In this document: positions 13,892 to 64,000 of the stretch, one piece after another
Numbering within the stretch: the stretch's first letter is position 1
Layout of the letters: the number at the start of each line of letters is the position of its first letter
Translations under genes and position numbers: made by a program
The notes under the pieces: model-generated
Told to the model about the DNA's origin: nothing
The model's input: only the letters and a program-made list of their open reading frames with translations
Databases searched by the model: none
Assembly (NCBI GenBank): GCA_964203225.1
Contig: CAXNMK010000002.1
Location: 545,664-609,663 of the forward strand
Length of the DNA: 64,000 nt
Origin: Kofleriaceae bacterium
GTDB taxonomy: Bacteria > Myxococcota_A > Polyangia > Haliangiales > Haliangiaceae
Reading direction: 5' to 3'

Positions 13892-18577
<4,686 letters not shown>

Positions 18578-26628: not shown

Positions 26629-28179
26629 TCAGCGGCCTGGCTGACGTGGTCGTCGACGCCTTGCTGGAGGCGTTCCATCCGGTGCTGGCGGCGCTGCGCG
26701 GGGGCGTCGAGCCGGCGATCGAGGTGGCGGCGCCGGCGGGTGCGGCCGCCGTGCTGGGCACGTGGCTCGCGGCGGGCATGGCGGCGCCGACGGCGGGCTT
26801 CGCGGCGCCGGCGACGGGCTTCGCGCGCCCGCCGCCGGCGCAGTCACGAGCGGCGGCGGGGCCGTGGGCTTGGAGGCAAGTCTGGCGGCGCTCGCGCCGG
26901 GCTTGACCACCGAGGGCAGCGCGCGTGGCAGGGCTGCGGCGGTCGCCAGCGCCGGCACGCCCGCCGAGGGCGTGCGCCGGGTGGTCGCGCTGGACGCGTT
27001 GAGGTCCTTGACCGACGGCAGCGCGGACGCCTTCGCGAGCGCCGCGCCGGCGAGCGGGCTGTTGGTGACCGCCTTGGTGCGAGCGCGCATGATCGGCGCC
27101 GACGGCGATGGCTCGAGCATCTCGGGGATCGCGAAGTTCTCGACGGCGTCGGCCGGCGCATGGGCGATCCCGCTCGCGGAGCCATCGAAGTCGACGACCG
27201 CCGGCGGCGGGGCCACCTCGTCGGTCAGCCACGGCTCGGGCTTATCGCCGAACAGCGAGCGCAAGTGGTCCGCGAGCGCCGCGTTCGACGTGCGAAGCGC
27301 CTGCATCTCGGCGAATGCCTCGAGCGCGGCGCGCATCTCATCGGCGGTCTGGTAGCGGTCCTTCGGGTCGACGGCCAGGGCCTTGAGGATGATGTCCTCG
27401 AGCTGCGGCGGCAGGTCCGGGCGGTGGATCGACGGGTGCGGATACGTCCCCTGGACGATCGCGCTCATCGTGAGGAAGTCGTTGTCGCCCTTGAACAGCC
27501 GGCGGCAGGTCGTGATCTCGTAGAGCACGATGCCGAGCGCGAACACGTCACTTCGGCGATCGACGGGCTTGCCGGCGCATTGCTCCGGCGCCATGTACGC
27601 GACCTTGCCCTTGAGCGTGCCGCCGACCGTCTCCGTGGTGCGCAGCGCCGCCGCCTTCGCGATGCCGAAGTCGACGACCTTCACGTTGCCGTCGAAGCCG
27701 ACGAGGATGTTGGCCGGCGAGACGTCGCAGTGGACGAGGCCGAGCGGCTTGCGATCTGGCCCCTGCTGGTTGTGGGCGTAGTGCAGCGCCGACGCGGCGG
27801 CGCCGATGATCGTGACGATGTGCTCGTACGGGACCTTCTGCTTGCGCTTCGCGGTCTCCATCAGGACCTTGCGCAGGTCCTCGCCGTGCACGTACTCCAT
27901 CGCGAAGAAGTACTCGCCGTCGGCCTGCCCGATGTCGTGCACCTGGACGATGTTGTGGTGGTGCAGCGTCGCGGCGAGGCGGGCCTCGTCGACGAACATC
28001 TTCACGAAGGCGGGATCGCGCGCGCGGTCAGCGTGGATCCGCTTGAGGACGACGTGGCGGGAGAATCCCTCGATGCCGGTCGCCAGGGCGAGCAGCACCT
28101 CGGCCATGCCGCCGTTCGCCAGATGCTTGATGATCTGATACCGGCCGAGCGTACCTGGAGACGTCGCCACGTTGTCCAC
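26629..28179 (-). CDS. Ser/Thr protein kinase (kinase domain plus Ala/Pro-rich linker); C-terminal continuation apparently in other frames (see 24955..26628)
   Basis: Kinase motifs GGMAEVLLA, HCDVSPANILV, DFGIAK, APEQ. The frame ends at 26629 inside a Pro/Ala-rich tract. A TM helix and repeat-rich tail lie in other frames downstream. Confidence 0.8.
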   Translation of the reverse strand: MDNVATSPGTLGRYQIIKHLANGGMAEVLLALATGIEGFSRHVVLKRIHADRARDPAFVKMFVDEARLAATLHHHNIVQVHDIGQADGEYFFAMEYVHGEDLRKVLMETAKRKQKVPYEHIVTIIGAAASALHYAHNQQGPDRKPLGLVHCDVSPANILVGFDGNVKVVDFGIAKAAALRTTETVGGTLKGKVAYMAPEQCAGKPVDRRSDVFALGIVLYEITTCRRLFKGDNDFLTMSAIVQGTYPHPSIHRPDLPPQLEDIILKALAVDPKDRYQTADEMRAALEAFAEMQALRTSNAALADHLRSLFGDKPEPWLTDEVAPPPAVVDFDGSASGIAHAPADAVENFAIPEMLEPSPSAPIMRARTKAVTNSPLAGAALAKASALPSVKDLNASSATTRRTPSAGVPALATAAALPRALPSVVKPGASAARLASKPTAPPPLVTAPAAGARSPSPAPRSPPSAPPCPPRATCPARRPHPPAPPPRSPARRPRAAPPAPDGTPPARRRRPRQPGR

Positions 28180-37723: not shown

Positions 37724-37785
37724 GCGCCATCCTAGATCACCGGGTGCCGGGACGGCGCGCGGCACGGGTGTTATGGTTCGCCGCC

Positions 37786-40689
37786 ATGTCCGCCCCCACG
37801 TCGTCGGGCCAGTCCAAGTACAAGGACAGCGTCAACCTCCCCGAAACTCCGTTCCCGATGCGCGGCGACCTCGCCACGCGGGAGCCCGAGATCCTCGCCA
37901 GCTGGGAGCGCACCGGCCTCTACCAGCGCATCCAGGATGCTCGCGAGGGGGCGCCGCTGTTCGTCCTCCACGATGGCCCGCCGTACTCGAACGGCCACAT
38001 CCACTACGGCCACATCCTCAACAAGATCCTCAAGGACATCGTCGTCAAGTCGCGGACGATGGCCGGGTTCCGCACGCCGTTCATCCCGGGCTGGGACACC
38101 CACGGCCTGCCGATCGAGCTCGCCCTCGAGCGCGAGCTCAAGGACAAGCGCTCGGCGATGAGCCCGGCGGAGTTCCGCCAGGCGTGCCGCGCGTACGCGA
38201 TGAAGTTCGTGGAGATCCAGCGCACCGAGTTCAAGCGCCTCGGCGTGCTCGGCGACTGGGAGCACCCCTACCTGACGCTCGATCCGACGTACGAGGGCGC
38301 GATCGCCCGCGCGCTCGCCACGTTCGCGCGCAAGGGGTTCCTGTACCGGGGCAAGAAGCCGGTGTCGTGGTGCCCGCGCGACAAGACCGCGCTCGCCGAG
38401 GCCGAGATCATCTACGCCGACAAGACCTCGCCGTCGGTGTACGTAAAGTTCCCGCTCGTCGATCGCGGCCAGCTCGACGTCCGGCTCGAGGGCCAGCGCC
38501 TCGCGTACGTGATCTGGACGACCACGCCGTGGACGCTGCCGGCGAACCTCGCGATCGTCGCGCACCCGGCGTTCACCTACGTCGCGCTGCCCAACCCGCG
38601 GGACGCCGGCGAGTCCCTGATCGTCGCCCGCGACCTCGCCGAGGCGTTCACCAAGGCGATCGGCGGCGGGGACCTCGCCGCGGCCATCGAGATCACGCCC
38701 GCGCAGATGGCCACCCTCGAGGGCGGCCGCTACGCGCACCCGTTCCTCGCCGCGGCGCCCGAGGGCGTGCCCGCGGACAAGGTGTGGCGCCTGTGGTTCG
38801 CGGACTACGTCACCACCGAGGCCGGCACCGGGCTCGTCCACACCGCGCCGGGCCACGGCGCCGACGACTACAAGACCGGCATGGCGCACGGCCTGCCGGC
38901 GTACGCGCCGCTCGACGATGCCGCGCGCTACACCGCGGGCATCGCGCTCGACGGTGGCGAGGCGCTGACCGGCAAGACCACGGAGCAGGCCAACCCCGTG
39001 ATCGTCGCGCACCTCGCGGCGTCCGGGCACCTCCTCAACCCGACCACCGACAAGATCCACCACAGCTACCAGCACTGCTGGCGCTGCAAGGGGCCGATCG
39101 TGTTCCGCGCCACGCCGCAGTGGTTCATCGCGATGGACCACGACGGCTATCGCACGGCCGCGCTCGGCGAGATCGACAAGACCACGTGGGTCCCGCCGTG
39201 GGGCCACGATCGGATCTACGCGATGATCGAGAACCGCCCGGACTGGGTGCTGTCGCGCCAGCGCCTGTGGGGCACCCCGATCCCCGCGTTCTATTGCACC
39301 GGCTGCGGCGCCGCGCACGCCAACGCCGACACGATGGACCACATCGCCGGCATCTTCGAGAAGGAGGGCGCCGACGCCTGGTGGACGCGCACGGTCGCCG
39401 AGCTGGTCCCGGTGGGCACCACGTGCGCTGGCTGCGGCGCGGGCCCCGACAAGCTCGAGCGCGAGAAGGACATCGTCGACGTGTGGTTCGAGTCGGGCGT
39501 GTCCTGGCTCGCGATGCAGAACCGCCCCGGCAAGGACGGCGCGGATCACGCGCACATCGACCTCTACCTCGAGGGCTCCGACCAGCACCGCGGCTGGTTC
39601 CACAGCTCGCTGCTCGCGGCGCTCGGCGTCAAGGGCAGTGCGCCGTACGACCAGGTCATCACGCACGGGTTCGTGCTCGACGCCGCGACCGGCACGCCCT
39701 ACTCGAAGTCCGACATCGCCAAGGCGAAGGCGGAAGGGCGCAAGCTCGACTACATCGAGCCCGAGGCGGTCATCAAGAAGAACGGCGCCGAGATGTTCCG
39801 GCTGTGGGTGGCGTCGACCGAGTTCCGGTCCGACATCCCGTACAGCCAGACGATCCTCGACGGCCTGTCCGAGTGGTACCGCAAGCTCCGCAACACGGCG
39901 CGGTTCCTCCTCGGCAACCTCAAGGACTTCGATCCGAACGTACATGGCCGGGAGGTCGTGGTCACGTCGGGGCTCGCGGTCGACCGTTACCTGCTCGCGA
40001 AGACCGATGACGTGGTGGCCCGCGCGCGCAAGGCGTACGAGGCCTACGAGCTGCACGTCGTGCACCGGCTGCTCGTGGAGTTCGTCACGACGGACCTGTC
40101 GGCGCTGTACGGCGACGTCACCAAGGACCGCCTGTACTCCGACGCGGTCGATTCCGGGCCGCGCCGCGCGGCGCAGCTCGTGATGTACGAGGCACTGCGC
40201 GCGATCACCACGCTGATCGCGCCGATCCTCGCGTTCACCGCCGAGGACATCTGGGCGCACATGCCGAAGCGCGCGGGGGACCCGGACAGCGTCCACCTCG
40301 CCACGTTCCCCGCGGCCGCGCCGGCCACGCAGATCGCGGCGGTCGCCGAGCTCGTCACCGAGTTCGGCGTCCTGCTCGCGTGGCGCGAGCGCGCGACCAA
40401 GGCGCTCGAACCGTTCCGCGCGACCAAGAAGAAGTCGGTCGACGCCGAGCTCGAGCTCCACCCCGTGGCTGCCGATCGCCCCACGCTGGCGCGCTACGCG
40501 ACCGAGCTGGCGGACCTGTTCATCGTGTCGGCGGTCACGATCGGCGGCGCCGGCGACGGCACCGCCGTGGTCCGCGAGCACGCCGGCCCGCGCTGCGAGC
40601 GCTGCTGGAAGCACTTCGAGAAGCTGGCCGCCGACCCCGATGACGTGTGCGAGCGGTGCGCGACCGCGCTCGCCGGAAGGAAGGCGTGA
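37786..40689 (+). CDS. ileS: isoleucyl-tRNA synthetase (type 1, C-terminal zinc finger)
   Basis: HIGH motif ([16 protein letters not shown]), KMSKS region, editing domain, C-terminal CERCWKHF...CERC zinc-binding. Start chosen at [19 protein letters not shown]. Confidence 0.95.
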
Positions 40690-50208: not shown

Positions 50209-51648
50209 CTACACGGTGGCGACGATGGCGATGATGCGCTCGCGGAGCCGCTGCGCATCGATCAGCGCCTGCGCCGTGGTCGGTCGCTCTGCCGGATCCG
50301 GATCGGCGAGGTGAGTCAGGTGCGCCTGCACGGCCTCGGCGAGATCGGCGGGCACGCCCGCGAACACGCTCGCGGGCAGGCACAGCTCGTCGCCGGTGCG
50401 GACGCCGGCCATCAGGGCGCGCTGCCAGGGTGTGCGCGCGGTCAGGTTCTCGAACAGCACGATCGCGGCGGCGTAGATATCGGCCGCAGGCGTCAGCTCG
50501 CCCCGCCGCTGCTCGGGCGCCATGTACGCGAGCGTCCCGACGGCCTCGGCGCGCTGCTCGCTGCCGCTGGCGGCGCCGCTGACGTCGGGCAGGTGGGCCA
50601 CGCCGAAGTCACCGAGCATGACCTCGACGCCAGGCAGGTCGACGTCGCGCCGGAACATCAGGTTGGCCGGCTTGAGATCGCAGTGGACGATGCCGCGCTT
50701 GTGAGCGGCCGCGAGCGCCGACAGCACCTGGCCGTGGCGCTCGATGGCGCGGCGCAGGGGCCGCGGCCCGCGCTCGCGGAGCACGTCGCGCAGCGTGCCG
50801 CCGGCGGCGAGCTCCATCACGATCCGGCGCGACGGCTCGTCGAGGTCGAGCACGGCGACGATGTTCGGGTGCCGCAGCGACGCCATCACGCGCGCCTCGT
50901 GGAAGAACCGCGCGAGCGCATCGGCGCGCTCGGCGCCGGCGAGGTGCGGGTGGAGCAGCTTGACCGCGACGTCGCGCTCGAACTCGGCGTCGCGCGCCAG
51001 GTACACCACGCCGGTCGCGCCGCGCCCGAGCTCGCGGACCAGCCGGTAGCGCGCGCCGGCCTGCACGCCGACGACGTCGCCCGCGGCGATGGTCTCGCCC
51101 GCCTGCGGCGCCGCGCGGCCGGTCAGCTGCCGCAGCCTCTCGACGCGCGCGCGGACGTTGGGGTAGTCGACGTCGCGCCCGAGCACCGCCTCGTAGTGAC
51201 GGAGCGCGAGCTCGTTCTCGCCCTTCTTGCGCGCGTGCTCGGCGAGCAGGTAGTGCGCGCGCAGCGCATGCGGCTCGGTGCGGCTGAGCAGCTCGAGGTG
51301 GGGGACGGCGGTGGCGAGCTCGCCGCGCTGCTCGTAGCGCTCGACGAGCAGCACGCGCAGAGGCGGCAGGTGCGCGGCGGGCACCTCGGGGACGCCGAGC
51401 AGCTTCTCGATCCACTCGATCGCGAGCCGCTCGTGCCCGCCGGTCCACAGGCCGTCGAGGCGCGTCAGCACGTCGGGGCCGGCGATCTCGTCGCGGCGCC
51501 GGCCCTCCGACAGGTCCTTGACCAGCGCGGCGAGGAACATCTCGTCCTCGCTGCCGAGGTGCTGCGGCTCCGGCGCGGCCGGGGGCGGCGCGACGGGCAG
51601 GCCGCGGCCCTCGCCCTGCCCGAGCAGGCGCTTCCACCACGACGCCAC
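50209..51648 (-). CDS. Ser/Thr protein kinase with N-terminal TPR-like region
   Basis: Kinase motifs GRGATGVVYLA, HCDLKPANLMF, DFGVA, APEQ in the C-terminal half. N-terminal helical repeats (ALRAHYLLAEHARKKGENELALRHYEAVL). Start GTG 51648 overlaps the FHA-gene stop (alternative ATG at 51540). Confidence 0.8.
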   Translation of the reverse strand: MASWWKRLLGQGEGRGLPVAPPPAAPEPQHLGSEDEMFLAALVKDLSEGRRRDEIAGPDVLTRLDGLWTGGHERLAIEWIEKLLGVPEVPAAHLPPLRVLLVERYEQRGELATAVPHLELLSRTEPHALRAHYLLAEHARKKGENELALRHYEAVLGRDVDYPNVRARVERLRQLTGRAAPQAGETIAAGDVVGVQAGARYRLVRELGRGATGVVYLARDAEFERDVAVKLLHPHLAGAERADALARFFHEARVMASLRHPNIVAVLDLDEPSRRIVMELAAGGTLRDVLRERGPRPLRRAIERHGQVLSALAAAHKRGIVHCDLKPANLMFRRDVDLPGVEVMLGDFGVAHLPDVSGAASGSEQRAEAVGTLAYMAPEQRRGELTPAADIYAAAIVLFENLTARTPWQRALMAGVRTGDELCLPASVFAGVPADLAEAVQAHLTHLADPDPAERPTTAQALIDAQRLRERIIAIVATV

Positions 51649-51649
51649 G

Positions 51650-52831
51650 TCAGCCCACGTCGATCTCGTCGCCATCGGCGACGATCCGGTCCCCGCGGAC
51701 CAGCTGCACCCGCACGTCGCCGAGGCGCTCCTCGTTGAACGTGACCTCGCGCGCGGTGCCACGCCCGAGCAGGGGGCGCCCGCCCTTGACCACGAGGTCG
51801 AGCGGGAGCCCGACCGGGGCCAGCGCGAGGCGATCGTCCTCGGCGCCCGCGAGCAGCGCGACGCCGCGATCGAGGCCTCCCGCGCACCGCAGGAGCAGCA
51901 CGCCGGCGGCCAGACCGTAGTCGATCGGGCACTCGTCGCCGAGGCCGAACGTGCCGGTGCCCGAGAGCGGCACGCGCCCGGCGAGCGGGAGGCCACTGAC
52001 GCTGGTGCCGTTGCGTGAGTCGAGGTCGCGCAGCACGAACCCCTCGGGGGTGCGCTCGATCTCCGCGTGCTGGCGTGACACGCCCCCGGCGCGCAGCGCG
52101 AGGTCGCACAGCGGATCGCGGCCAAGGACGATCTTGGGCGCCGCGCACACCACGATCAGCGGCCGGCCGCGCCGCCGCAGCTCGACCTTGCCCGCGGTCA
52201 GCAGCGAGGTGTCGAGCTGATCGAGCAGCCGCCGGTACTCGCCCGCGACCGAGGACGCGCCGATCGCGCGCACCAGCTCGCGGCGGGCCTCGTCGCGGCG
52301 GCCGACCTGCATCGCCGTCTCGTAGCCGGCGAACGCATCGGCCTCGGCGCGCGAGCGATCGTTGGCGGCCTCGTCCTTGCCGAGCGCCAGCTCCATGCGC
52401 TCGACGAGGCCGCCCGCGGAGTACGCGGTGGCGGCCGCGAGGTGATCGCCGATCGCCTCGAGCGCCTCGCCGGCGAGGTGGTGATCGTCGCCGGTGACCA
52501 GCAGCTCCGCGGCTTCGCGGACCTTGGCCCGATCGCGCTCGGTGGCGATGCCCTCGGCCTTCGCCGCCTCGTACTGCGCCTTGCCGAGCGCCGCCGCCGC
52601 GCGCCGCCGCAGCTCGGGCACCTCGCCCGCCCACCGCAGCGCATCGCGGAGCGCGCCGATCTCGGCGAGCCGGCTGCCCGCGCGCGCGGCCCGCGCGAGG
52701 TGCATGCGGACCGCGCCCTCGAGCTCACCGGCGAGGGCATACCGCTCGGCCGCGAGGTCGACGTTGCCCGCGGCCTCGGCGGCCACTGCGGTGCGGTAGT
52801 CGGCGGACAACATGCGGCGGAGGAAGCTCAC
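51650..52831 (-). CDS. FHA domain-containing protein (helical N-terminal region, C-terminal FHA)
   Basis: FHA signature IVLGRDPLCDLALRAGGVSRQHAEIERTPEGFVLRDLDSRNGTSVSG. Immediately upstream of, and overlapping, the STK gene. Confidence 0.8.
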   Translation of the reverse strand: MSFLRRMLSADYRTAVAAEAAGNVDLAAERYALAGELEGAVRMHLARAARAGSRLAEIGALRDALRWAGEVPELRRRAAAALGKAQYEAAKAEGIATERDRAKVREAAELLVTGDDHHLAGEALEAIGDHLAAATAYSAGGLVERMELALGKDEAANDRSRAEADAFAGYETAMQVGRRDEARRELVRAIGASSVAGEYRRLLDQLDTSLLTAGKVELRRRGRPLIVVCAAPKIVLGRDPLCDLALRAGGVSRQHAEIERTPEGFVLRDLDSRNGTSVSGLPLAGRVPLSGTGTFGLGDECPIDYGLAAGVLLLRCAGGLDRGVALLAGAEDDRLALAPVGLPLDLVVKGGRPLLGRGTAREVTFNEERLGDVRVQLVRGDRIVADGDEIDVG

Positions 52832-55287: not shown

Positions 55288-56307
55288 ATGATCCTACACA
55301 AGTCGGTCCCCCCATCCCCCGATTGGTCAGCGGAGGTCCTGGCGCGGTGCGCCACCCGGTCCCCGTCGCGCCAGGCGGGCGCGCTGTCGTTCGCGCATGT
55401 CCGCGAGCTGACGCGGGTCGCCACGCCGCGGACCGAGCAGGCCTACCTCGCGGCCGCCGCTGCCAAGACGTCACGCCAGGTGCAGCAGCTGTGCTCGGGC
55501 AAGCAGGCCGGCGATGCGCCCGACGCGCCGCCGGATCCAGCGCTGGTCAAGCACCTCGTCGTCCTCGAGCTGGGCGGCGAGGCGTTCGCGATGTGGCGGC
55601 GGGCGCACCAGGTGCTCGAGGACGAGGTGGGCGAGCGGCTGTCCATGGATGAGCTCGTGATGCAGCTGTGCGCGCAGGCGGTCGCGCCGGCGGTGGCCGC
55701 CGAGGTGCACCCCGCGGTGGCCGCCGAGGTGAGGACCCATGGCGCACCGGCGCCTGAGGTGGATTCGGACCGGTCCCGCGGGACCGCCATCGCGATGCCG
55801 ACCGGGGCCATCGCGATGCCGACCGGGGCCATCGCGATGCCGACCGGGGCCGCCGCCGAGGTCGATGCGGACCGGTCCCGCGGGACCGGCGAGGCGATCC
55901 GGAACGCCGGCCCGGCGCCCACGGCAGCGCCCGGCGTGCGCACGCGCGTGCGCGGCCCCCGGGTCGCGCCACCGCCGACGCTGCACGCGGTGACCACCTG
56001 CCGGACGTACCAGCGCGCCACCGCCAGCGCCGTCGGCAGCGCCGAGCCCCTCACGCCCGCGCAGCGCGACCGCGCGCTGTGCGACGCGATCCACGTCGGC
56101 GACCTCGAGACCAGCGACCGCACGCGGCCGACGCTCACCGTGCCCAACGCGATCCGGCGCAAGGTCGCCATCGCCTGCCACCACGCGTGCGTGGTCCCGG
56201 GCTGCCGCAGCCGGCGCTTCCTGACCATCCACCACCTGCGCTACCAGGCCCACGGCGGGGGCCACACCGTCGAGAACTGCATCCAGCTGTGTCATCGCCC
56301 ACCATGA
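55288..56307 (+). CDS. DUF222-like N-terminal domain plus C-terminal HNH endonuclease motif (REP13E12-like family)
   Basis: N-terminal LSFAHVRELTRVATPRTEQAYLAAAAAKTSRQVQQL resembles DUF222. C-terminal CVVPGCRSRRFLTIHHLRYQAHGGGHTVENCIQLCHRP is an HNH motif. Internal 21-nt x3 repeat (AIAMPTG) flanked by two copies of a palindromic 24-mer. Confidence 0.7.
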   Translation: MILHKSVPPSPDWSAEVLARCATRSPSRQAGALSFAHVRELTRVATPRTEQAYLAAAAAKTSRQVQQLCSGKQAGDAPDAPPDPALVKHLVVLELGGEAFAMWRRAHQVLEDEVGERLSMDELVMQLCAQAVAPAVAAEVHPAVAAEVRTHGAPAPEVDSDRSRGTAIAMPTGAIAMPTGAIAMPTGAAAEVDADRSRGTGEAIRNAGPAPTAAPGVRTRVRGPRVAPPPTLHAVTTCRTYQRATASAVGSAEPLTPAQRDRALCDAIHVGDLETSDRTRPTLTVPNAIRRKVAIACHHACVVPGCRSRRFLTIHHLRYQAHGGGHTVENCIQLCHRPP

Positions 56308-56910
56308 TCGCGTCCATCAGGGGCAGCTGCGCATCGAGGGCACCGCGCCTCATGCCCTCGAGGTCGCGTGGCGGCACCCGGCGTCGAACGAGGAGCTGGA
56401 GGCCGGTGCCGGACCCTGGGTGTGGCGCCGCGTGCCCCCGGAGCCGGTCCGCCCGGGGCGCGGGGCGTGACACCGCACGCGCGGTGGACCGCCGCTGCGT
56501 CGCGCGAGGCGTCCGCACGTGCGCGGCGCGCTCACCGGCCGGGCCCCGCCGAGGCCCCCTCCCCGAGCGCGTCGAGCCGTGATGCGCCGGGCGCCACCGG
56601 ATCGCGCGGGCGGTGCCCGTCGTCCGGAGCTTCTGCGAGCGCCCCGCGGTCCACGTCGGGAGGCCCCAGCGCGAGCGCGGCGCCCGCGCGCCACGCGTGG
56701 TGCACGGTCTGGCCACGCGGTGTTCCCGAGATGTGATCGATGATGAGGTTCCCACCCCGGGTTCGAGACTGGTTCACAGGCTCTCAGGAATCTGAGACCC
56801 ACCGGCGCCGAGAGCACAGGATCCGTGATGTGCACGAAGTCATACGCGCGTGGGATCAGCCACTTGGCGCTGGCACGGAGGCTGCTATCCCTGGGGCCGT
56901 GACCCGTTGG

Positions 56911-57903
56911 ATGATCGCCCTCGTGCTCGCCATGGCCTCGGCCACGGCGGTCGCGCAGCCGGGGCCGGGCCCGGCGCCGGTCGCCACGGGGCGGGCCCAG
57001 GACACCGAGCGCACGCTCGAGGCCGAGGTCCGGCGCCTGACCACGCACTGGACGCAGCTGACCTCGAGCTATCGCCGGCAGCTCGAGGCGATCGACCGGC
57101 TCAAGAAGCAGCGGTCCTCCTGGCGCCAGCAGCGCGCGCTCAAGGACCAGCTCGCCTCCGCCAACGACACCGCGAAGCAGCTCGCCAGCGCGAGCGCCGA
57201 GCTGACCTTGGCGAACACCCGGCTCGCCACCGCGCGCCGGACGCTCCTCGCCGCGATCGACGCCGAGATGGCCGCCGGCGCGACCGGTCCCCGCGCGGCC
57301 GAGCTGACCCGCGTGCGCGCGCGGCTCGCGCCGGCCGTGACCAAGGCGCGGGTCGCCCGGATCGTGCTGCCCGAGCTCGAGGTCGATCCGCTCGCGGACC
57401 CCGAGGAGCTCGAGGAGCAAGGCCGAGCGCTCGCCGACAGCGAGGCCCAGCTGCGCAGCCAGATCGCGGACCTCGAGCGCCAGACCACCCAGCTCGAGCA
57501 GGTGGCCCGGCTGCGGTCGCAGCACGAGCGCGCCGGGGACCTCGCCCGCCGCGACGATGATCAGCCCCAGCGCTCGGCGAGCCAGGGCACGCGCACGTTG
57601 GGTAGCGGGACCGCCGCCGAAGGCGCCAGCGCGCCCGAGGTCGGCGCGCCGCCGTCCGATGGCGGTGACGGCACCGGGCTCGGCACCGGGGTGGGTGGTG
57701 GTAGGTTCGAGGCCGAGGCGACCATCGTGCTCGCCGAGGTCGTCGACGCCACCACCATCGAGTCGCTGACGCGCGCGCAGCGCTCCGGGGATCCGGCGCA
57801 GCGCGCGGCCGCCGCCCGGCGCGCGCGCGACGCGGTCGCCGCCCGGCTGGCGCAGTTGCAGAAGAAGCGCGCCGAGATCCAGCGCCTGCTTCACCCGAGG
57901 TAG
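56911..57903 (+). CDS. secreted coiled-coil protein, hypothetical
   Basis: Signal peptide MIALVLAMASATAVAQPGPGP. Long heptad-like Ala/Leu/Gln/Arg-rich helices (QLEAIDRLKKQRSSWRQQRALKDQLASAND...). Start uncertain. Confidence 0.5.
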   Translation: MIALVLAMASATAVAQPGPGPAPVATGRAQDTERTLEAEVRRLTTHWTQLTSSYRRQLEAIDRLKKQRSSWRQQRALKDQLASANDTAKQLASASAELTLANTRLATARRTLLAAIDAEMAAGATGPRAAELTRVRARLAPAVTKARVARIVLPELEVDPLADPEELEEQGRALADSEAQLRSQIADLERQTTQLEQVARLRSQHERAGDLARRDDDQPQRSASQGTRTLGSGTAAEGASAPEVGAPPSDGGDGTGLGTGVGGGRFEAEATIVLAEVVDATTIESLTRAQRSGDPAQRAAAARRARDAVAARLAQLQKKRAEIQRLLHPR

Positions 57904-58380
57904 CGCGGGTGGGTCGTCGCCCCGCAGCTGGCGTCGCGATCACGCTGACGAGCGCGTCGCGAGGGTTCTCGTAGAACACGACGAGCTCGTGGTCGTCGCT
58001 GAGCTCCTTCCGGCCGGAGATCGAGAGGACGAATTACAGGAAAGTGTGCGGCGTCATCGGCCTCGGCGGCAGGTACTCGCGCAGCACGGATGAGGTCGTC
58101 GAGGACGCGCTCCATGGTCGCCAGCGCTGCCGCCTGTTCTCCAGGTTCGTCCCAGGTAAGGGCCCGCGAATGGACATCTCGATCGCCTTCGCGGTCGATC
58201 CATCCCCGGGGGCGTCGTTGCTCCTCGGTCGCGTACCGGCGGGTACGCTCCCTCGTCGCGCCTCGCCCGCGGGGCGGTTCGCCCACGATCATCGATCGAT
58301 TTACCCGTTCGCGGCCCCTCAAGTCGCCGCTGAAGCACAATGGCGCCGCGAGGCATCGGGTCTCGCAGTACGATGGCGCA

Positions 58381-61300
58381 ATGGTACGTGGAGCCCACCT
58401 GGCGGTGATCGGGTTGTTCGTGGCCGGTCTTTTCGGCGCTTGCGTCTCGCCGACGTCGAACCACTGTCCCACGGTGGATTGTCCGGCGAACGAAGTCTGC
58501 GACGGCCACGGTGGCTGCGCGCAGCAAGCGCAGCTCGACGTCTGCAAGGACAAACCGGACGGGACCTCGTGCAGCTACGACCGCACACCGGATGGCTCGT
58601 GCGCCGGGGGGCTATGCCGTCCGGTCGGCTGCGGCAACGACGCCGTCACCGCCAACGAGGTGTGCGACGACGGCAACACCGCCAACGGCGACGGCTGCTC
58701 GGCGGACTGCAAGTCCAACGAGACCTGCGGCAACGGTGTGGTCGACCCGGCGCGCGGCGAGCAGTGCGACGACGCCAATGCGGTCGACGGCGACATGTGC
58801 CAGCACGACTGCAAGCTCCCGCGGTGCGGCGACAGCGTGACGGATGCGAACCTCGCGGAGACCTGCGACGAGGGTGCTGCGAACTCGACGGCGCCGGATG
58901 CGGCGTGCCGGCCGAACTGCCAGCGCGTGCGGTGTGGTGATGGGGTGGTCGACGTGCTCGCGCTCGAGGCGTGCGACGACGGCAACAATCAGAGCGCCGA
59001 CGGTTGCTCGGGCGACTGCAAGTCGACCGAGACCTGCGGCAACACCATCGTCGACGCGATCGCGGGCGAGGTGTGCGACGACGGCAACATGGCATCGGGT
59101 GATGGCTGCGCGGGTGACTGCCGGTCGGTCGAGGTGTGCGGCAACGGTGTCATCGACATCCTGCGCGGCGAGGTGTGCGACGACGCCAACACGGTCTCCG
59201 GCGACGGCTGCTCGTCGGATTGCAAGTCACTCGAGGTGTGCGGCAACACCATCGTCGACACGATCGACGAGCAATGCGACCTCGGCGTGGCCAATTCGAA
59301 CGCACCCGACTCGGCGTGCCGGATCGACTGCAAGCTGCCGATCTGCGGCGATGCGATCATCGACGCATCGAACCGGGGCGAACAATGCGACGACGGGTTC
59401 ATGAACGCGGACGTCGCCGATGCGTGCCGCACGAGCTGCCAGCTGCCGCGCTGCGGCGACGCGATCAGGGACATGCTCGAGATCTGCGACGACGGCGATG
59501 CCACCTCGGGCGACGGCTGCGCGTCGGACTGTCAGTCGCTCGAGACCTGCGGTAACGCCATCATCGACACCGCTGCCGGCGAGCAATGCGACGCGGGGGG
59601 GGCGAATTCGAACAGCCCGAACGCGCCGTGCCGGGTCGACTGCAAGCTGCCGAAGTGTGGTGACACCGTGATCGATAGCGCCAACGGCGAGAGCTGCGAT
59701 CTCGGCACGGCGAACTCGAGCGCACCCAACGCGTTGTGCCGGACCAACTGTCAGCCACAGCGCTGCGGCGACGCGATCCGCGACACCGCGTTGGCGGAGG
59801 TCTGCGACGATGGCAACACGACGGCCACCGATGGCTGCGCGTCGGACTGCCGCTCGCTCGAGACCTGTGGCAACAGCATCGTCGACACGAGCACGGGCGA
59901 GCAGTGCGACGCCGGCGCCGGCAACGCGAACACGCCGAACGCGCCGTGCCGCCTGACCTGCACGTCACCGACCTGTGGTGACAACATCATCGACAACACG
60001 CTGCTCGGCGAGGGTTGCGATCTCGGCCTGGCAAACTCGAACGCACCGGGCGCCGCGTGCCGGACGAGCTGCCAGCCGCGACGCTGCGGCGACAGCATCC
60101 TCGACGCCGCGACGGGCGAGTCGTGCGACGACGGCAACACGGTCGCGGGTGATGGCTGTTCGGCGGACTGCGAATCGCTCGAGACGTGTGGCAACGGCGT
60201 GGTCGACCTCGTGAACGACGAGCAGTGCGATGCGGGTGGCGCCAACGCGAACACGCCGAACACGCCGTGCCGCACGACCTGCAAGTCACCGGCGTGCGGC
60301 GACAGCATCGTCGACAATACGTTGCTCGGCGAGGGCTGTGACCTTGGCCTGGCGAACTCGAACGCGCCGAACGCAGCCTGCCGGACGAGCTGCCAGCCGC
60401 AACGCTGTGGCGACAACATCCGTGACACCACGTTGGGTGAGTCGTGCGACGACGGCAACACGGTCGCGGGCGACGGCTGCTCGGCGGACTGCAATTCGCT
60501 CGAGATCTGCGGCAACAGCATCGTCGATGTCGTCGACGGCGAGCAGTGCGACGCGGGCGGCGCGAACTCGAACAGCCCGAACGCGCCGTGCCGGCTGACC
60601 TGCCAGCTGCCGAAGTGTGGCGATGTCATCATCGACACCGCGAATGGCGAGACCTGCGATCTCGGGACCGCCAACTCGAGCGCACCGAACGCGACGTGCC
60701 GGACCAACTGCCAGCCTCGGCGGTGTGGCGACACGATCCTCGACAACGCCACCGGGGAAGTCTGCGACGACGGCAACACGGCGGCGAACGACGGCTGCTC
60801 GTCCAGCTGTGGCTCGCTCGAGACGTGTGGCAATAGCATCGTCGACACGAGCACGGGCGAACAATGCGACGCCGGTGCCAGCAACGCGAACACGCCGAAC
60901 GCCCCGTGCCGGCTGACCTGCGCGTCACCGAGGTGTGGCGACAGCATCGTCGACAACACGCTGCTCGGCGAGGGCTGCGACCTCGGCGGGGCGAACTCGA
61001 ACGCGCCGAACGCGACCTGCCGGACGGGCTGTCAGCCGCGACGGTGCGGCGACAATATCCTCGATACCGCGACGGAGTCGTGCGACGACGGCAACACGAT
61101 CGCGGGCGACGGCTGTTCGGCGAACTGTGCGTCGCTCGAGACCTGCGGCAACGGGATCGTCGACCTCGTCGATGGCGAGCAGTGTGACGCGGGTGCTGCC
61201 AACTCGAACGCTCCGAATGCCCCGTGCCGCCTGACGTGCAAGCTGCCGAAGTGCGGAGACACCGTCGCCGACCCGGCGCTCGGCGAGGCCTGCGACCTTG

Positions 61301-64000
61301 GCGTCGCGAACTCCAACCTGCCCAACGCGACGTGCCGAACGAGCTGCCAGCTACAGCGCTGCGGCGACAACATCTTCGACAATACGCTGGGCGAGATCTG
61401 CGACGACGGCAACGCGGTCGCCGGCGACGGCTGCTCGCCCGACTGCAAGTCGACCGAGGTATGCGGCAACAGCATCGTCGACGTCGTCGATGGCGAACAG
61501 TGCGATGCGGGTGCCGCGAACTCGAACAGCCCGGACGCGCCGTGCCGGCCGACCTGCCAGCTGCCGAGGTGCGGCGATGTCATCGTCGACACCGCCAACG
61601 GCGAGAGCTGCGATCTCGGAGGCGCCAACTCGAGCGCGCCCAACGCGACCTGCCGGACCAACTGTCAGCCGCAACGGTGTGGCGACACGATCCTCGATAA
61701 CACCAAGGGCGAGGTCTGCGACGATGGCAACACGGCGGCGAACGATGGCTGCTCGTCCAGCTGTGGCTCGCTCGAGACGTGCGGCAACAGCATCGTCGAT
61801 ACCAGCAAGGGCGAGCAGTGCGATGCCGGTGCGGCCAACTCGAACAGCCCGAACGCGCCGTGCCGGCCGACCTGCAAGCTGCCGGTCTGCGGCGATGTCA
61901 TTGTCGACACCGCGTTTGGCGAGGCGTGCGACCTCGGCGTGGCGAACTCGAACGCGCCCAATGCGACGTGCCGGACGATCTGCCAGCTACAGCGATGTGG
62001 CGACTTCATCCTCGACAATACGAAGGGCGAGATCTGCGACGACGGCAACACGATCGCGAACGATGGCTGCTCGTCGAACTGTGGCTCGCTCGAGACCTGC
62101 GGCAACGGGATCGTCGACGTCACCAAGGGAGAACAGTGCGACGCCGGTGGGCTCAACTCGAACAACCCGAACGCACCGTGCCGGTTGACGTGCAAGCTGC
62201 CGACCTGCGGTGACGGCGTCGCCGATACCGCGTTCGGTGAGGGTTGCGACCTCGCCACCGCGAACTCGAACGGCCCGAATGCCGTGTGCCGCACGAACTG
62301 TCAGCCGCAGCGCTGCGGAGACCTCGTGCTCGACAATACCAAGGGCGAGGTGTGCGACGACGGCAACGTGACGAGTGGCGACAGCTGCTCGGCGGACTGC
62401 AAGTCGACCGAGTTCTGCGGCAACGCGATCATCGATGTCGTCGATGGTGAACAGTGCGACGACGGCAACGCGAGCAATGCCGACACCTGCCACACCGATT
62501 GCAAGATCCCGCGGTGCGGCGATCTGATCGTCGACACGACCTTCAACGAGCAGTGCGATCTTGGCGTCGCGAACTCGAACGCGCCGAACTCGGCCTGCCG
62601 CACGACCTGCGTCCAGCCGCGGTGCGGCGACGCGATCGTCGATACCGCGACCGAGGTCTGCGACGATGGCAACAGCGCCCTCGGGGATGGCTGTCGACCC
62701 GACTGTCGATCGACCGAGGTGTGCGGCAATGGCATCCTCGATCCGCAGACCGGCGAGGTCTGCGACGACGGCAACACGCGCGGTCACGACGGCTGCAGCG
62801 GGTGCGTGCCGGAGTCCGCGGTGGTCCTCGAAGCGAACGGCGCACCGAGCGCCCGCGACATGATGGGGCTCGCGTACGACGCCGCTCGCCAGCGGGTCGT
62901 GATGTTCGGCGGCTGGACGCCGGCGGGGAATCTGAACGACACCTGGGAGTGGGATGGCGTCAGCTGGATCCAGATGACGCCCAAGCACGCGCCCAAGGGT
63001 CGGCTCGGCGTGGCGATGGCGTACGACGCGGCTCGCCATCGCATCGTGCTGTTCGGTGGGTTCACCACCAACTTCGGCGTCATCCAGTCCGATACCTGGG
63101 AGTACGACGGCGTCGATTGGAAGCAGTTCGCGCCGCCGACGTCGCCACCGGGTCGTGCCGAGGCTGCGGCGGCGTACGACGCCAGTCGCCGCAAGGTGAT
63201 CATGTACGGCGGCTACGATGGCAGCACCACCTCCAGGAGCGATACCTGGGAGTGGACCGGCACCACCTGGAACCAGATCACCGGGAGCAACGCCGGCGCG
63301 CGACGCGGTCACTCGATGGCGTACGACGCCAAGTCCAAGACGATCGTGCTGTTCGGCGGCGGCGATAACCGAACCTGGACGTGGAACGGCACGACGTGGA
63401 CGGATCGCGGGGCTCCTGGTGCCGACGGTCCGATCAACAACGGCACCGATCAGACATCGATGGTGTTCGACGCCGATCAGCAGGTCATCGTGCTGTGGGA
63501 TGGCACCTCGAGCAAGACGTTCCACTGGTCGGGCAGCGCCTGGACCACCGTGGCCGGCACGACTCCGACGACGCCGCGCACGCGAATCACGATGGTGTAC
63601 GACTCGATCCGCAAGCAGGTCGTGATGTTCGGCGGTTGCTCGGGGCTGCTGACGACCACGTGCGCGTCCAGTTTCGGTACGGACTTCGCCGACACCTGGT
63701 TGCGCACCGGCACGACGTGGGCGTTGGCTCCGGTGTTCGTCCAGCCCGCCGCTCGGATCCGCGCGGCGGCCACCTACGATCCGTTGCGCAAGAAGGTCGT
63801 GCTGTTCGGCGGTCAGCTCACCGCCTCTCGACGAGCCTGTGGCGTGACCTGCATGCTGAACGAGACCTGGGAGTGGGATGGTCGCAAGTGGACGCTCACC
63901 ACGCCGACGACGCCACCCTCGGCGCGCGCGGGTCACCTGATGGACTACGACACCAGCGCGCGTGCGATCCGGCTGTTCGGCGGCGACTTCCGCAGCAGCG
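58381..64000 (+). CDS. giant secreted (possibly lipo-)protein: N-terminal signal peptide, ~35 tandem Myxococcus-type cysteine-rich repeats, then Kelch-like beta-propeller blades; partial, continues beyond the window
   Basis: [21 protein letters not shown] signal. Repeats 58600-62790 alternate two ~40-aa unit types: C-G-N-x-I/V-V-D-x(3)-G-E-x-C-D-D-G-N-x(4)-D-G-C-S-x-D-C and C-D-x-G-x-A-N-S-N-x-P-N-A-x-C-R-x-x-C-x-x-P-x-C-G-D, period ~240 nt. From ~62800 six or more blades with DTWEWDG..W / FGG motifs (galactose-oxidase/Kelch type). Confidence 0.8.

Follow-up and report, generated by a model that had tools for sequence, protein, structure and literature searches.

A giant protein with a predicted lipoprotein anchor, a 40-unit cysteine-rich stalk, and a Kelch head from a Kofleriaceae-like myxobacterium

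Introduction

TraA, the outer-membrane-exchange and kin-recognition receptor of Myxococcus xanthus, has a PA14 head at its N-terminus, a series of TIGR04201 repeats, and a MYXO-CTERM anchor at its C-terminus. Its cysteine-rich tandem repeat, which corresponds to TIGR04201, was proposed to serve as a rigid stalk presenting the binding domain (PA14) (PMC3325183). Here, we describe a gene that starts at position 58381 on the + strand of a 64,000-nucleotide (nt) stretch of a Kofleriaceae bacterium (contig CAXNMK010000002.1 of assembly GCA_964203225.1, positions 545,664 to 609,663; hereafter, the window) and runs to its end. The gene is genuine, and its part within the window covers residues 1–1873 of a giant protein of a Kofleriaceae-like myxobacterium, which is predicted to be an envelope lipoprotein and is built from a cysteine-rich stalk and a Kelch head.

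Compared with TraA, the window protein shows an inverted polarity, with an N-terminal lipobox anchor, TIGR02232-type repeats, and a C-terminal double Kelch. TIGR02232 was the sole NCBIfam match reported for the window protein and three full-length homologs; none of them matched TIGR04201, and PA14 was not matched in the window protein. Neither MYXO-CTERM (TIGR03901) nor any other C-terminal sorting tag was found in the full-length homologs, the sequences of which end in ...CPNDC. With TIGR04201, PA14, and MYXO-CTERM all unmatched, TraA was rejected as a family relative and is considered an analog only.

Two other groups of described proteins share parts with the window protein. LZTR1, KLHDC2/3/10, and KEAP1 are eukaryotic six-bladed Kelch substrate receptors with 14–19% identity to the head; in contrast to them, the window family has two propellers fused in one chain, which is predicted to be extracytoplasmic and disulfide-linked, and lacks the BTB, BACK, and Cullin adaptor parts. 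The likeness to the human proteins PAPP-A and PAPP-A2 is confined to one repeat unit of the A type (one of the two unit types of the stalk, defined below), which occurs as one unit within a metalloprotease in PAPP-A, whereas it is part of a tandem stalk in the window protein. The closest likeness was observed for relatives from Kofleriaceae, Haliangiales, and Polyangia, which have the same lipobox, eight-cysteine cap, order of flanking units (AABAAABaA), A-B-B' triads, and Kelch head at 50–66% identity, and the comparison of domain architectures proposed in an earlier sequence-only reading of the window thus showed a shared layout.

The literature search turned up no study of what TIGR02232/DUF4215 or its Kelch fusion does, and no family member was found to be characterized. 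The phrase "Myxococcus cysteine-rich repeat" reportedly occurs in a paper on a Peregrinibacteria genome and in a paper on human COLQ. The window protein is an unusually long-stalked addition to a catalogued but uncharacterized family, and the exact protein is absent from the protein collection searched. It is typical of the uncharacterized giant surface proteins of myxobacteria; its architecture is interesting and unsurprising, and as it stands, it has no bearing on a long-standing question.

Gene model and N-terminal region

The frame that begins with the ATG at 58381 stays open without interruption up to position 64000, where the window ends (1873 codons). The GC contents at the first, second, and third codon positions of this frame were 0.58, 0.57, and 0.88, respectively, and the coding signature was called clear because of the high third-position value (GC3). 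The nearest in-frame stop upstream of the ATG is at position 58000, and two in-frame ATGs (58090 and 58114) would prepend approximately 90 Arg-rich residues, which have no counterpart in the homologs. As these residues are absent from the homologs and a signal peptide begins directly at 58381, the start was taken at this position. The local GC content falls from approximately 75% upstream to 64–71% within the gene; as GC3 remains 0.88, this dip was attributed to the D/N/T/S-rich composition and not to a foreign origin. Two antisense open reading frames (ORFs), 61987–63936(-) and 59751–60959(-), were rejected as genes, as they had no Pfam match and are shadow frames of a high-GC3 gene. The features of the gene, with positions in amino acids (aa) of the window protein, are as follows.

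58381..58443 (+): start codon and predicted lipoprotein-type signal peptide, aa 1–21 (translation; lipobox LFGAC, Cys21)
58444..58629 (+): N-terminal cap, 62 aa (aa 22–83), eight cysteines, ending in CRPVG (conservation in homologs)
58630..62805 (+): stalk, 4,176 nt, 40 tandem cysteine-rich units, aa 84–1475 (unit segmentation; profile models)
59452..62313 (+): regular stalk core, nine A-B-B' triads, aa 358–1311 (Tandem Repeats Finder; identity matrix; autocorrelation)
62806..63753 (+): linker and Kelch blades 1–6, aa 1476–1791, predicted first propeller (blade mapping)
63754..64000 (+): Kelch blade 7 and the start of blade 8, aa 1792–1873, predicted start of the second propeller (translation; blade mapping; 12-blade homologs)

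The sequence-only reading had proposed an N-terminal signal peptide and a gene that runs off the window. Both were borne out: the frame is still open at 64000, and the signal peptide, as read from the translation, is more specifically of the lipoprotein type. It has Arg3, a hydrophobic core of 12 residues, and then LFGA|C at Cys21, which fits the pattern [LVI..][ASTG][GAS]-C. The combination of Arg3, a hydrophobic core, and [AGS]-C presumably also satisfies the lipobox rule of PROSITE PS00013/PS51257. An equivalent [AGS]-C lipobox was present in 21 of the 30 closest homologs, and the lipoprotein assignment of the window protein was made solely from the pattern match and this conservation. From the size of the relatives, the full protein probably comprises approximately 2,150–2,200 residues.

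The cap had no match in Pfam or NCBIfam and is 61–69% identical to that of the closest homologs. When it was searched alone, just 47 cluster representatives among 1.84 billion were retrieved at E ≤ 1e-3; with the cap as its defining feature, the family is therefore small.

Cysteine-rich stalk

Splitting the stalk at every CG[DN] yielded 40 units of 32–37 aa, each of which contains exactly four cysteines (160 in total). By loop length, 19 units are of the A type (C-D-D-G-N-x4-D-G-C-S-x2-C) and 21 of the B type (C-D-x-G-x-A-N-S-N-x-P-N-A-x-C-R-x2-C). In 34 seven-unit segments, the cysteine columns were invariant, as were Gly, Asp, and Glu columns.

The two unit types differed in their visibility to curated hidden Markov models (HMMs). 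The window protein matched TIGR02232 (cysteine-rich acidic repeat) in 18 stretches with 371.4 bits (cut-off of 20.8) and Pfam DUF4215 (PF13948) in 10 stretches with 240.3 bits (cut-off of 27). A lone A unit scored 41 bits. For a single B unit, a single B' unit, and a B-only concatenate of 220 aa, nothing was found in NCBIfam, and DUF4215 was matched only at an E value of 0.56; thus, only the A-type units were recognizable as TIGR02232/DUF4215. The hhalign comparison of the 19-unit A profile with the 21-unit B profile gave a probability of 97.2% (E = 3.7e-11), and all four cysteines were in register, as was the CGD...GE-x-CD arm. By this profile alignment, the B units are homologous, divergent variants of A, which have a loop extended by three residues and lack the second acidic DG. 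This constitutes an annotation gap, as approximately half of the stalk is invisible to curated models, and domain counts for such proteins are therefore systematically too low.

Cysteines additional to the four of a unit were counted in the stalk units of the 120 best homologs (e.g., P0018, P0021, and P0023). Of the 12 that fell in the CGx...GE arm, 10 came after a unit with at least five cysteines, whereas chance would give 0.23. The rare extra cysteines thus occur in pairs across the unit boundary, one in the loop of a unit and one in the arm of its successor, which suggests an additional inter-unit disulfide and hints that neighboring units pack tightly head to tail.

Tandem Repeats Finder reported a period of 318 nt with 10.2 copies and a 75% match. 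The autocorrelation of base identity over the stalk peaked at 318 nt (0.53), 954 nt (0.50), and 636 and 1272 nt (0.47). The 318-nt period corresponds to an A-B-B' triad of 104–107 aa, nine of which are arranged regularly in aa 358–1311. The DNA identity between triads ranged from 69 to 86% and was highest for triads three apart (85, 86, 82, and 79%); as these are the most alike, the array grew at least once by the duplication of a three-triad block of 954 nt. The most similar triad pairs had a synonymous divergence (dS) of 0.41–0.61 and a ratio of nonsynonymous to synonymous divergence (dN/dS) of 0.22–0.39. By these measures, the stalk repeats are old, diverged copies kept by purifying selection.

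The sequence-only reading had described an array of approximately 4.2 kb with approximately 35 Myxococcus-type units in two alternating types, nearly periodic at approximately 240 nt and too diverged for a recent assembly duplication. The array was found at 58630–62805, both unit types were recovered with the quoted motifs by segmentation, and the identity of 69–86% agreed with the proposed divergence. The remaining particulars were revised: the units number 40, they follow the order A-B-B' and do not simply alternate, and the autocorrelation at 240 nt (0.319) was below the mean or background value (0.331). The assignment to the Myxococcus-type repeat, for which a TIGR02232 search had been proposed, stood for the A units, with 371 bits for the whole protein, and failed for the B units, which make up about half.

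A solved example of the unit was found outside the bacteria. The profile of seven stalk units had no match in the sequences of the PDB, while a hand-composed, idealized consensus of two A-type units matched a unit in human pappalysin-1 and -2 (E = 1e-4). The single A-type unit of PAPP-A is CGDGIIQKDQGEQCDDMNKINGDGCSLFCRQ (chain residues 866–896). It is the sole solved example of the A-type unit found in the PDB comparison and is contained in the cryo-EM structures 8a7d, 7y5n, and 7ufg of PAPP-A and 8sl1 of PAPP-A2. No discussion of the unit was found in the PAPP-A structure papers checked. It could be used as an experimental template for the disulfide pattern of the A-type unit.

Kelch head

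After a short linker, the stalk is followed by seven full blades of the DTWEWDG type (starting at aa 1491, 1541, 1592, 1641, 1690, 1733, and 1792) and an eighth, which starts at aa 1849 and of which the window holds only the first part. Four Kelch HMMs scored above their cut-offs: PF24681 (86.5 vs. 50), PF24981 (59.5 vs. 50), Kelch_3 (42.3 vs. 22), and Kelch_4 (32.7 vs. 21.6). At least six Kelch-type blades, to be checked by a Kelch HMM search, had been proposed from the sequence alone, and the count was thus confirmed and extended. In the full-length homologs, the Kelch consensus comprises 12 blades and is followed by a cysteine-rich tail of approximately 90 aa that ends the protein (consensus of DYDNDGxAGCADxECW...CGDFxCDxGE...CPNDC).

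The head was modeled with AlphaFold2 (AF2) on the C-terminal 716 aa of the homolog P0009, which are approximately 65–66% identical to the window head, using an alignment of 60 sequences. The model had a mean predicted local distance difference test score (pLDDT) of 92.8 and a predicted template modeling score (pTM) of 0.93, and each of its halves aligned to six-bladed Kelch domains. The head is thus predicted to be two six-bladed propellers packed as one body with the cysteine-rich tail, and the window protein, as mapped by its blades, would hold the whole of propeller 1 but just the first one and a half blades of propeller 2. The best structural matches of the P0009 head were LZTR1, KLHDC2/3/10, and KEAP1. 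The domain reading made from the sequence alone is supported both by the HMM scores, which are far above the cut-offs, and by the confident head model of a 65%-identical homolog.

A Kelch module of approximately 11–12 blades was also observed alone, in ORFs of approximately 740–790 aa without a cysteine-rich stalk (L006, L007, L011, L013, L023–L026, and others). The hosts were metagenome-assembled genomes (MAGs) of Planctomycetota, Acidobacteriota, Chloroflexota, and Chlamydiae, and the module was present in tandem pairs in L025 and L026. The double propeller appears to be an older module of wide distribution, which was joined to a stalk in the myxobacterial lineage.

Relatives and gene pairs

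A search of 5.8 billion clusters retrieved no protein with more than 60% identity (55–60% for the best match) and a coherent set with the same layout at 50–60%. A search of genome contigs with the head retrieved only relatives at ≤51% identity. The relatives that have a name carry no other designation than "DUF4215 domain-containing protein" or "cysteine-rich repeat protein." Their sources are Kofleriaceae, Haliangiales, Polyangia, and "Deltaproteobacteria" MAGs (e.g., P0009, P0001, P0002, and P0006).

The relatives share the unit order AABAAABaA-(BBA)n-A(A), in which the flanks are conserved and the number of triads varies. Most close relatives have 24–26 units (4–5 triads), compared with 40 units (nine triads) in the window protein. 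P0009, the closest relative, has 17 units and no triads, and the independent homolog P0012 has 39 units. As judged from these unit counts, the window protein has the longest stalk in its close group. A and B units were also found elsewhere, fused at either end to other heads, including carbonic anhydrase, M9 collagenase, the lamin-tail domain (LTD), the bacterial pre-peptidase C-terminal domain (PPC), the FGE-sulfatase domain, and C-type lectin. As the same units carry quite different heads, we read the stalk as a generic spacer.

In the relatives, the gene is often one of a tandem pair, and in many cases the stop codon of the first gene overlaps the start codon of the second. Such pairs were found in L001 (3936–13879), L002 (3423–12115), L078 (751–10589), L079 (10001–19935), and L080 (10001–19751). 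Among L001, L002, and L079, the first genes were 77–87% identical to each other and the second genes 74–80%, whereas first and second genes were approximately 50–55% identical. As the first and second genes form separate orthology groups, the pair predates the L001, L002, and L079 lineages and was kept. The conservation of the pair may be a sign of a two-component or heteromeric function.

A second cap-stalk-Kelch paralog, P0016, has 16 units and is 69% identical to the window protein in the cap and 50% in the head. It probably belongs to the same genome as the window gene and could be its tandem partner just beyond the window end. Past approximately blade 11, its sequence is Arg-rich nonsense, which suggests that its C-terminus is frameshifted (a pseudogene or an assembly indel).

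Proposed role and alternatives

We consider it probable, by a modest degree, that the protein is an envelope-anchored, rigid, disulfide-rich stalk that presents a ligand-binding double-Kelch head. After Sec export, lipidation of Cys21 would hold the N-terminus in a membrane. In the oxidizing periplasm, the 160 stalk cysteines would form approximately two disulfides per unit (approximately 80 in total), and the acidic CDDGN..DG loops of the A units may bind Ca2+. The outcome would be a long, stiff, protease-resistant rod that keeps the double-propeller head at a large distance from the membrane. The head, most likely displayed at the cell surface, would bind a protein or a glycan, for example of the matrix, of prey, or of neighboring cells. 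The reach of the rod may have been tuned over evolution by unequal recombination between the 318-nt triads, which number nine here, 4–5 mostly, and zero in P0009.

This proposal is favored by the best structural matches of the head, as the propellers of LZTR1, KLHDC2/3/10, and KEAP1 act as protein or peptide receptors. It is also favored by the conserved lipobox, the use of the same units with other heads, the invariant unit columns and boundary-spanning cysteine pairs, the varying triad number under purifying selection, the lack of a C-terminal anchor in the full-length homologs, and the precedent of the stalk proposed for TraA. The suggestion of an extracellular adhesion or recognition protein, made earlier from the sequence alone, is reasonable in this respect and stays an inference, as no characterized family member was found. 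Several points weigh against the proposal. Lipoproteins can also face the periplasm, the genomic neighborhood provides no functional clue for the stalk-Kelch gene, and the C-terminal approximately 300 residues of the window protein lie past the window end. The stacking of the repeats, which the sequence-only reading had proposed to predict with AlphaFold, was modeled with AF2 on seven units (using the 34 in-register segments), and the model was only moderate (pLDDT of 66); the B units had values of approximately 83 and the A units of approximately 50. Regular structure was almost absent from the model, which agrees with the expectation for small disulfide knots, and Foldseek against the PDB returned no significant neighbor for it (ADAM22 and PAPP-A at E > 2). 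As the stalk model is moderate and has no structural neighbor, the rod shape and length are assumptions. If the mechanism holds, the family would clearly exemplify a natural modular design of an anchor, an adjustable rigid spacer, and a binding head in a Gram-negative envelope, and the spacer length would change in steps of 106 residues.

An unlikely, though not negligible, alternative is that the protein is a released component of the extracellular matrix or biofilm, that is, a tough, cross-linkable fiber with a Kelch head linking matrix polymers. Proteins with cysteine-rich repeats are characteristic of extracellular matrices (PMC3325183), and a protein with twelve DUF4215 repeats was mentioned in passing among the proteins of diatom adhesive trails (bioRxiv 10.1101/2023.03.06.531300). 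Many stalk-bearing relatives also have no lipobox when searched by regular expression. However, the lipobox cysteine is kept in most of the closest homologs, arguing for membrane attachment at least initially, and with exactly four cysteines per unit, the stalk has no odd cysteine to suggest intermolecular cross-links.

A more elaborate form of the envelope-anchored stalk is improbable in our estimation: the cap-stalk-double-Kelch lipoproteins would be a lineage-specific surface recognition system of Kofleriaceae-like myxobacteria, in which the products of the first and second genes of the tandem pair act as a pair and the stalk (17–40 units) sets the distance of engagement with cells, prey, or matrix. 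If so, the system would be a functional counterpart of TraA made from unrelated parts, and the B-type unit would merit its own family model.

It is slightly less probable still that the Kelch head is an enzyme merely tethered by the stalk, either a sugar mutarotase such as YjhT/NanM or a galactose-oxidase-like oxidase. The YjhT family model TIGR03547 scored 17.3 bits in P0009, compared with a cut-off of 256.35, and the other full-length homologs had no match. The closest structures are binding propellers (14–18% identity). The head matches six-bladed propellers, while the propeller of galactose oxidase is seven-bladed. The invariant columns of the head are structural and limited to W, G, D, P, R, and T, with no catalytic-type residues among them and no invariant His, Tyr, or Cys.

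It is hardly credible that the 40-unit array is an assembly artifact with an inflated or collapsed repeat number, even though long tandem repeats are classic trouble spots and the apparent frameshift in P0016, probably of the same genome, indicates that the assembly or that gene copy is not free of errors, as exact repeats within the gene reach 35 nt at most (copies at 60793 and 61747), no k-mer of at least 40 nt is repeated within it, the copies are 69–86% identical with dS of at least 0.41, the frame is open across 5.6 kb, exactly four cysteines are retained in every unit, and the independent homolog P0012 has 39 units. Ordinary reads can resolve such copies; the sequence offers no reason to expect collapse or inflation, which we regard as unlikely. 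These values lend no support to the earlier concern that assembly collapse is likely to affect the repeat count, and the relatives share the triad organization.

Genomic neighborhood

The gene is preceded by a spacer of 478 nt, and no sigma-70-like promoter was found in 57700–58500. Two ORFs on the same strand lie upstream, neither with a Pfam match. The product of 56740–57903(+) resembles a coiled-coil protein that is secreted or anchored in a membrane, and that of 55288–56307(+) has an HNH-like Cys/His end (CVVPGC...HHL...HGGGHTVENCIQLCH). The window gene showed no synteny with the loci of the homologs, in which SelR, DNA ligase, and LigD are located upstream and Ser/Thr kinases downstream.

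The window otherwise resembles an ordinary myxobacterial chromosome, with ComEC, MgtE, and an NtrC-type activator with a histidine kinase. Its isoleucyl-tRNA synthetase (IleRS; 37744–40689(+)) is 100% identical to the database protein P0121, and the best named relatives of the enzyme were from Kofleriaceae, at 82%, which places the window in a Kofleriaceae-like myxobacterium. A 1561-aa protein encoded at 13892–18577(-) has a Ser/Thr kinase at its N-terminus and TPR repeats at its C-terminus, together with an AAA_16 (STAND-type) ATPase. Additional Ser/Thr kinases are encoded at 26629–28179(-) and 50209–52125(-), and an FHA-domain protein is encoded at 51650–52831(-).

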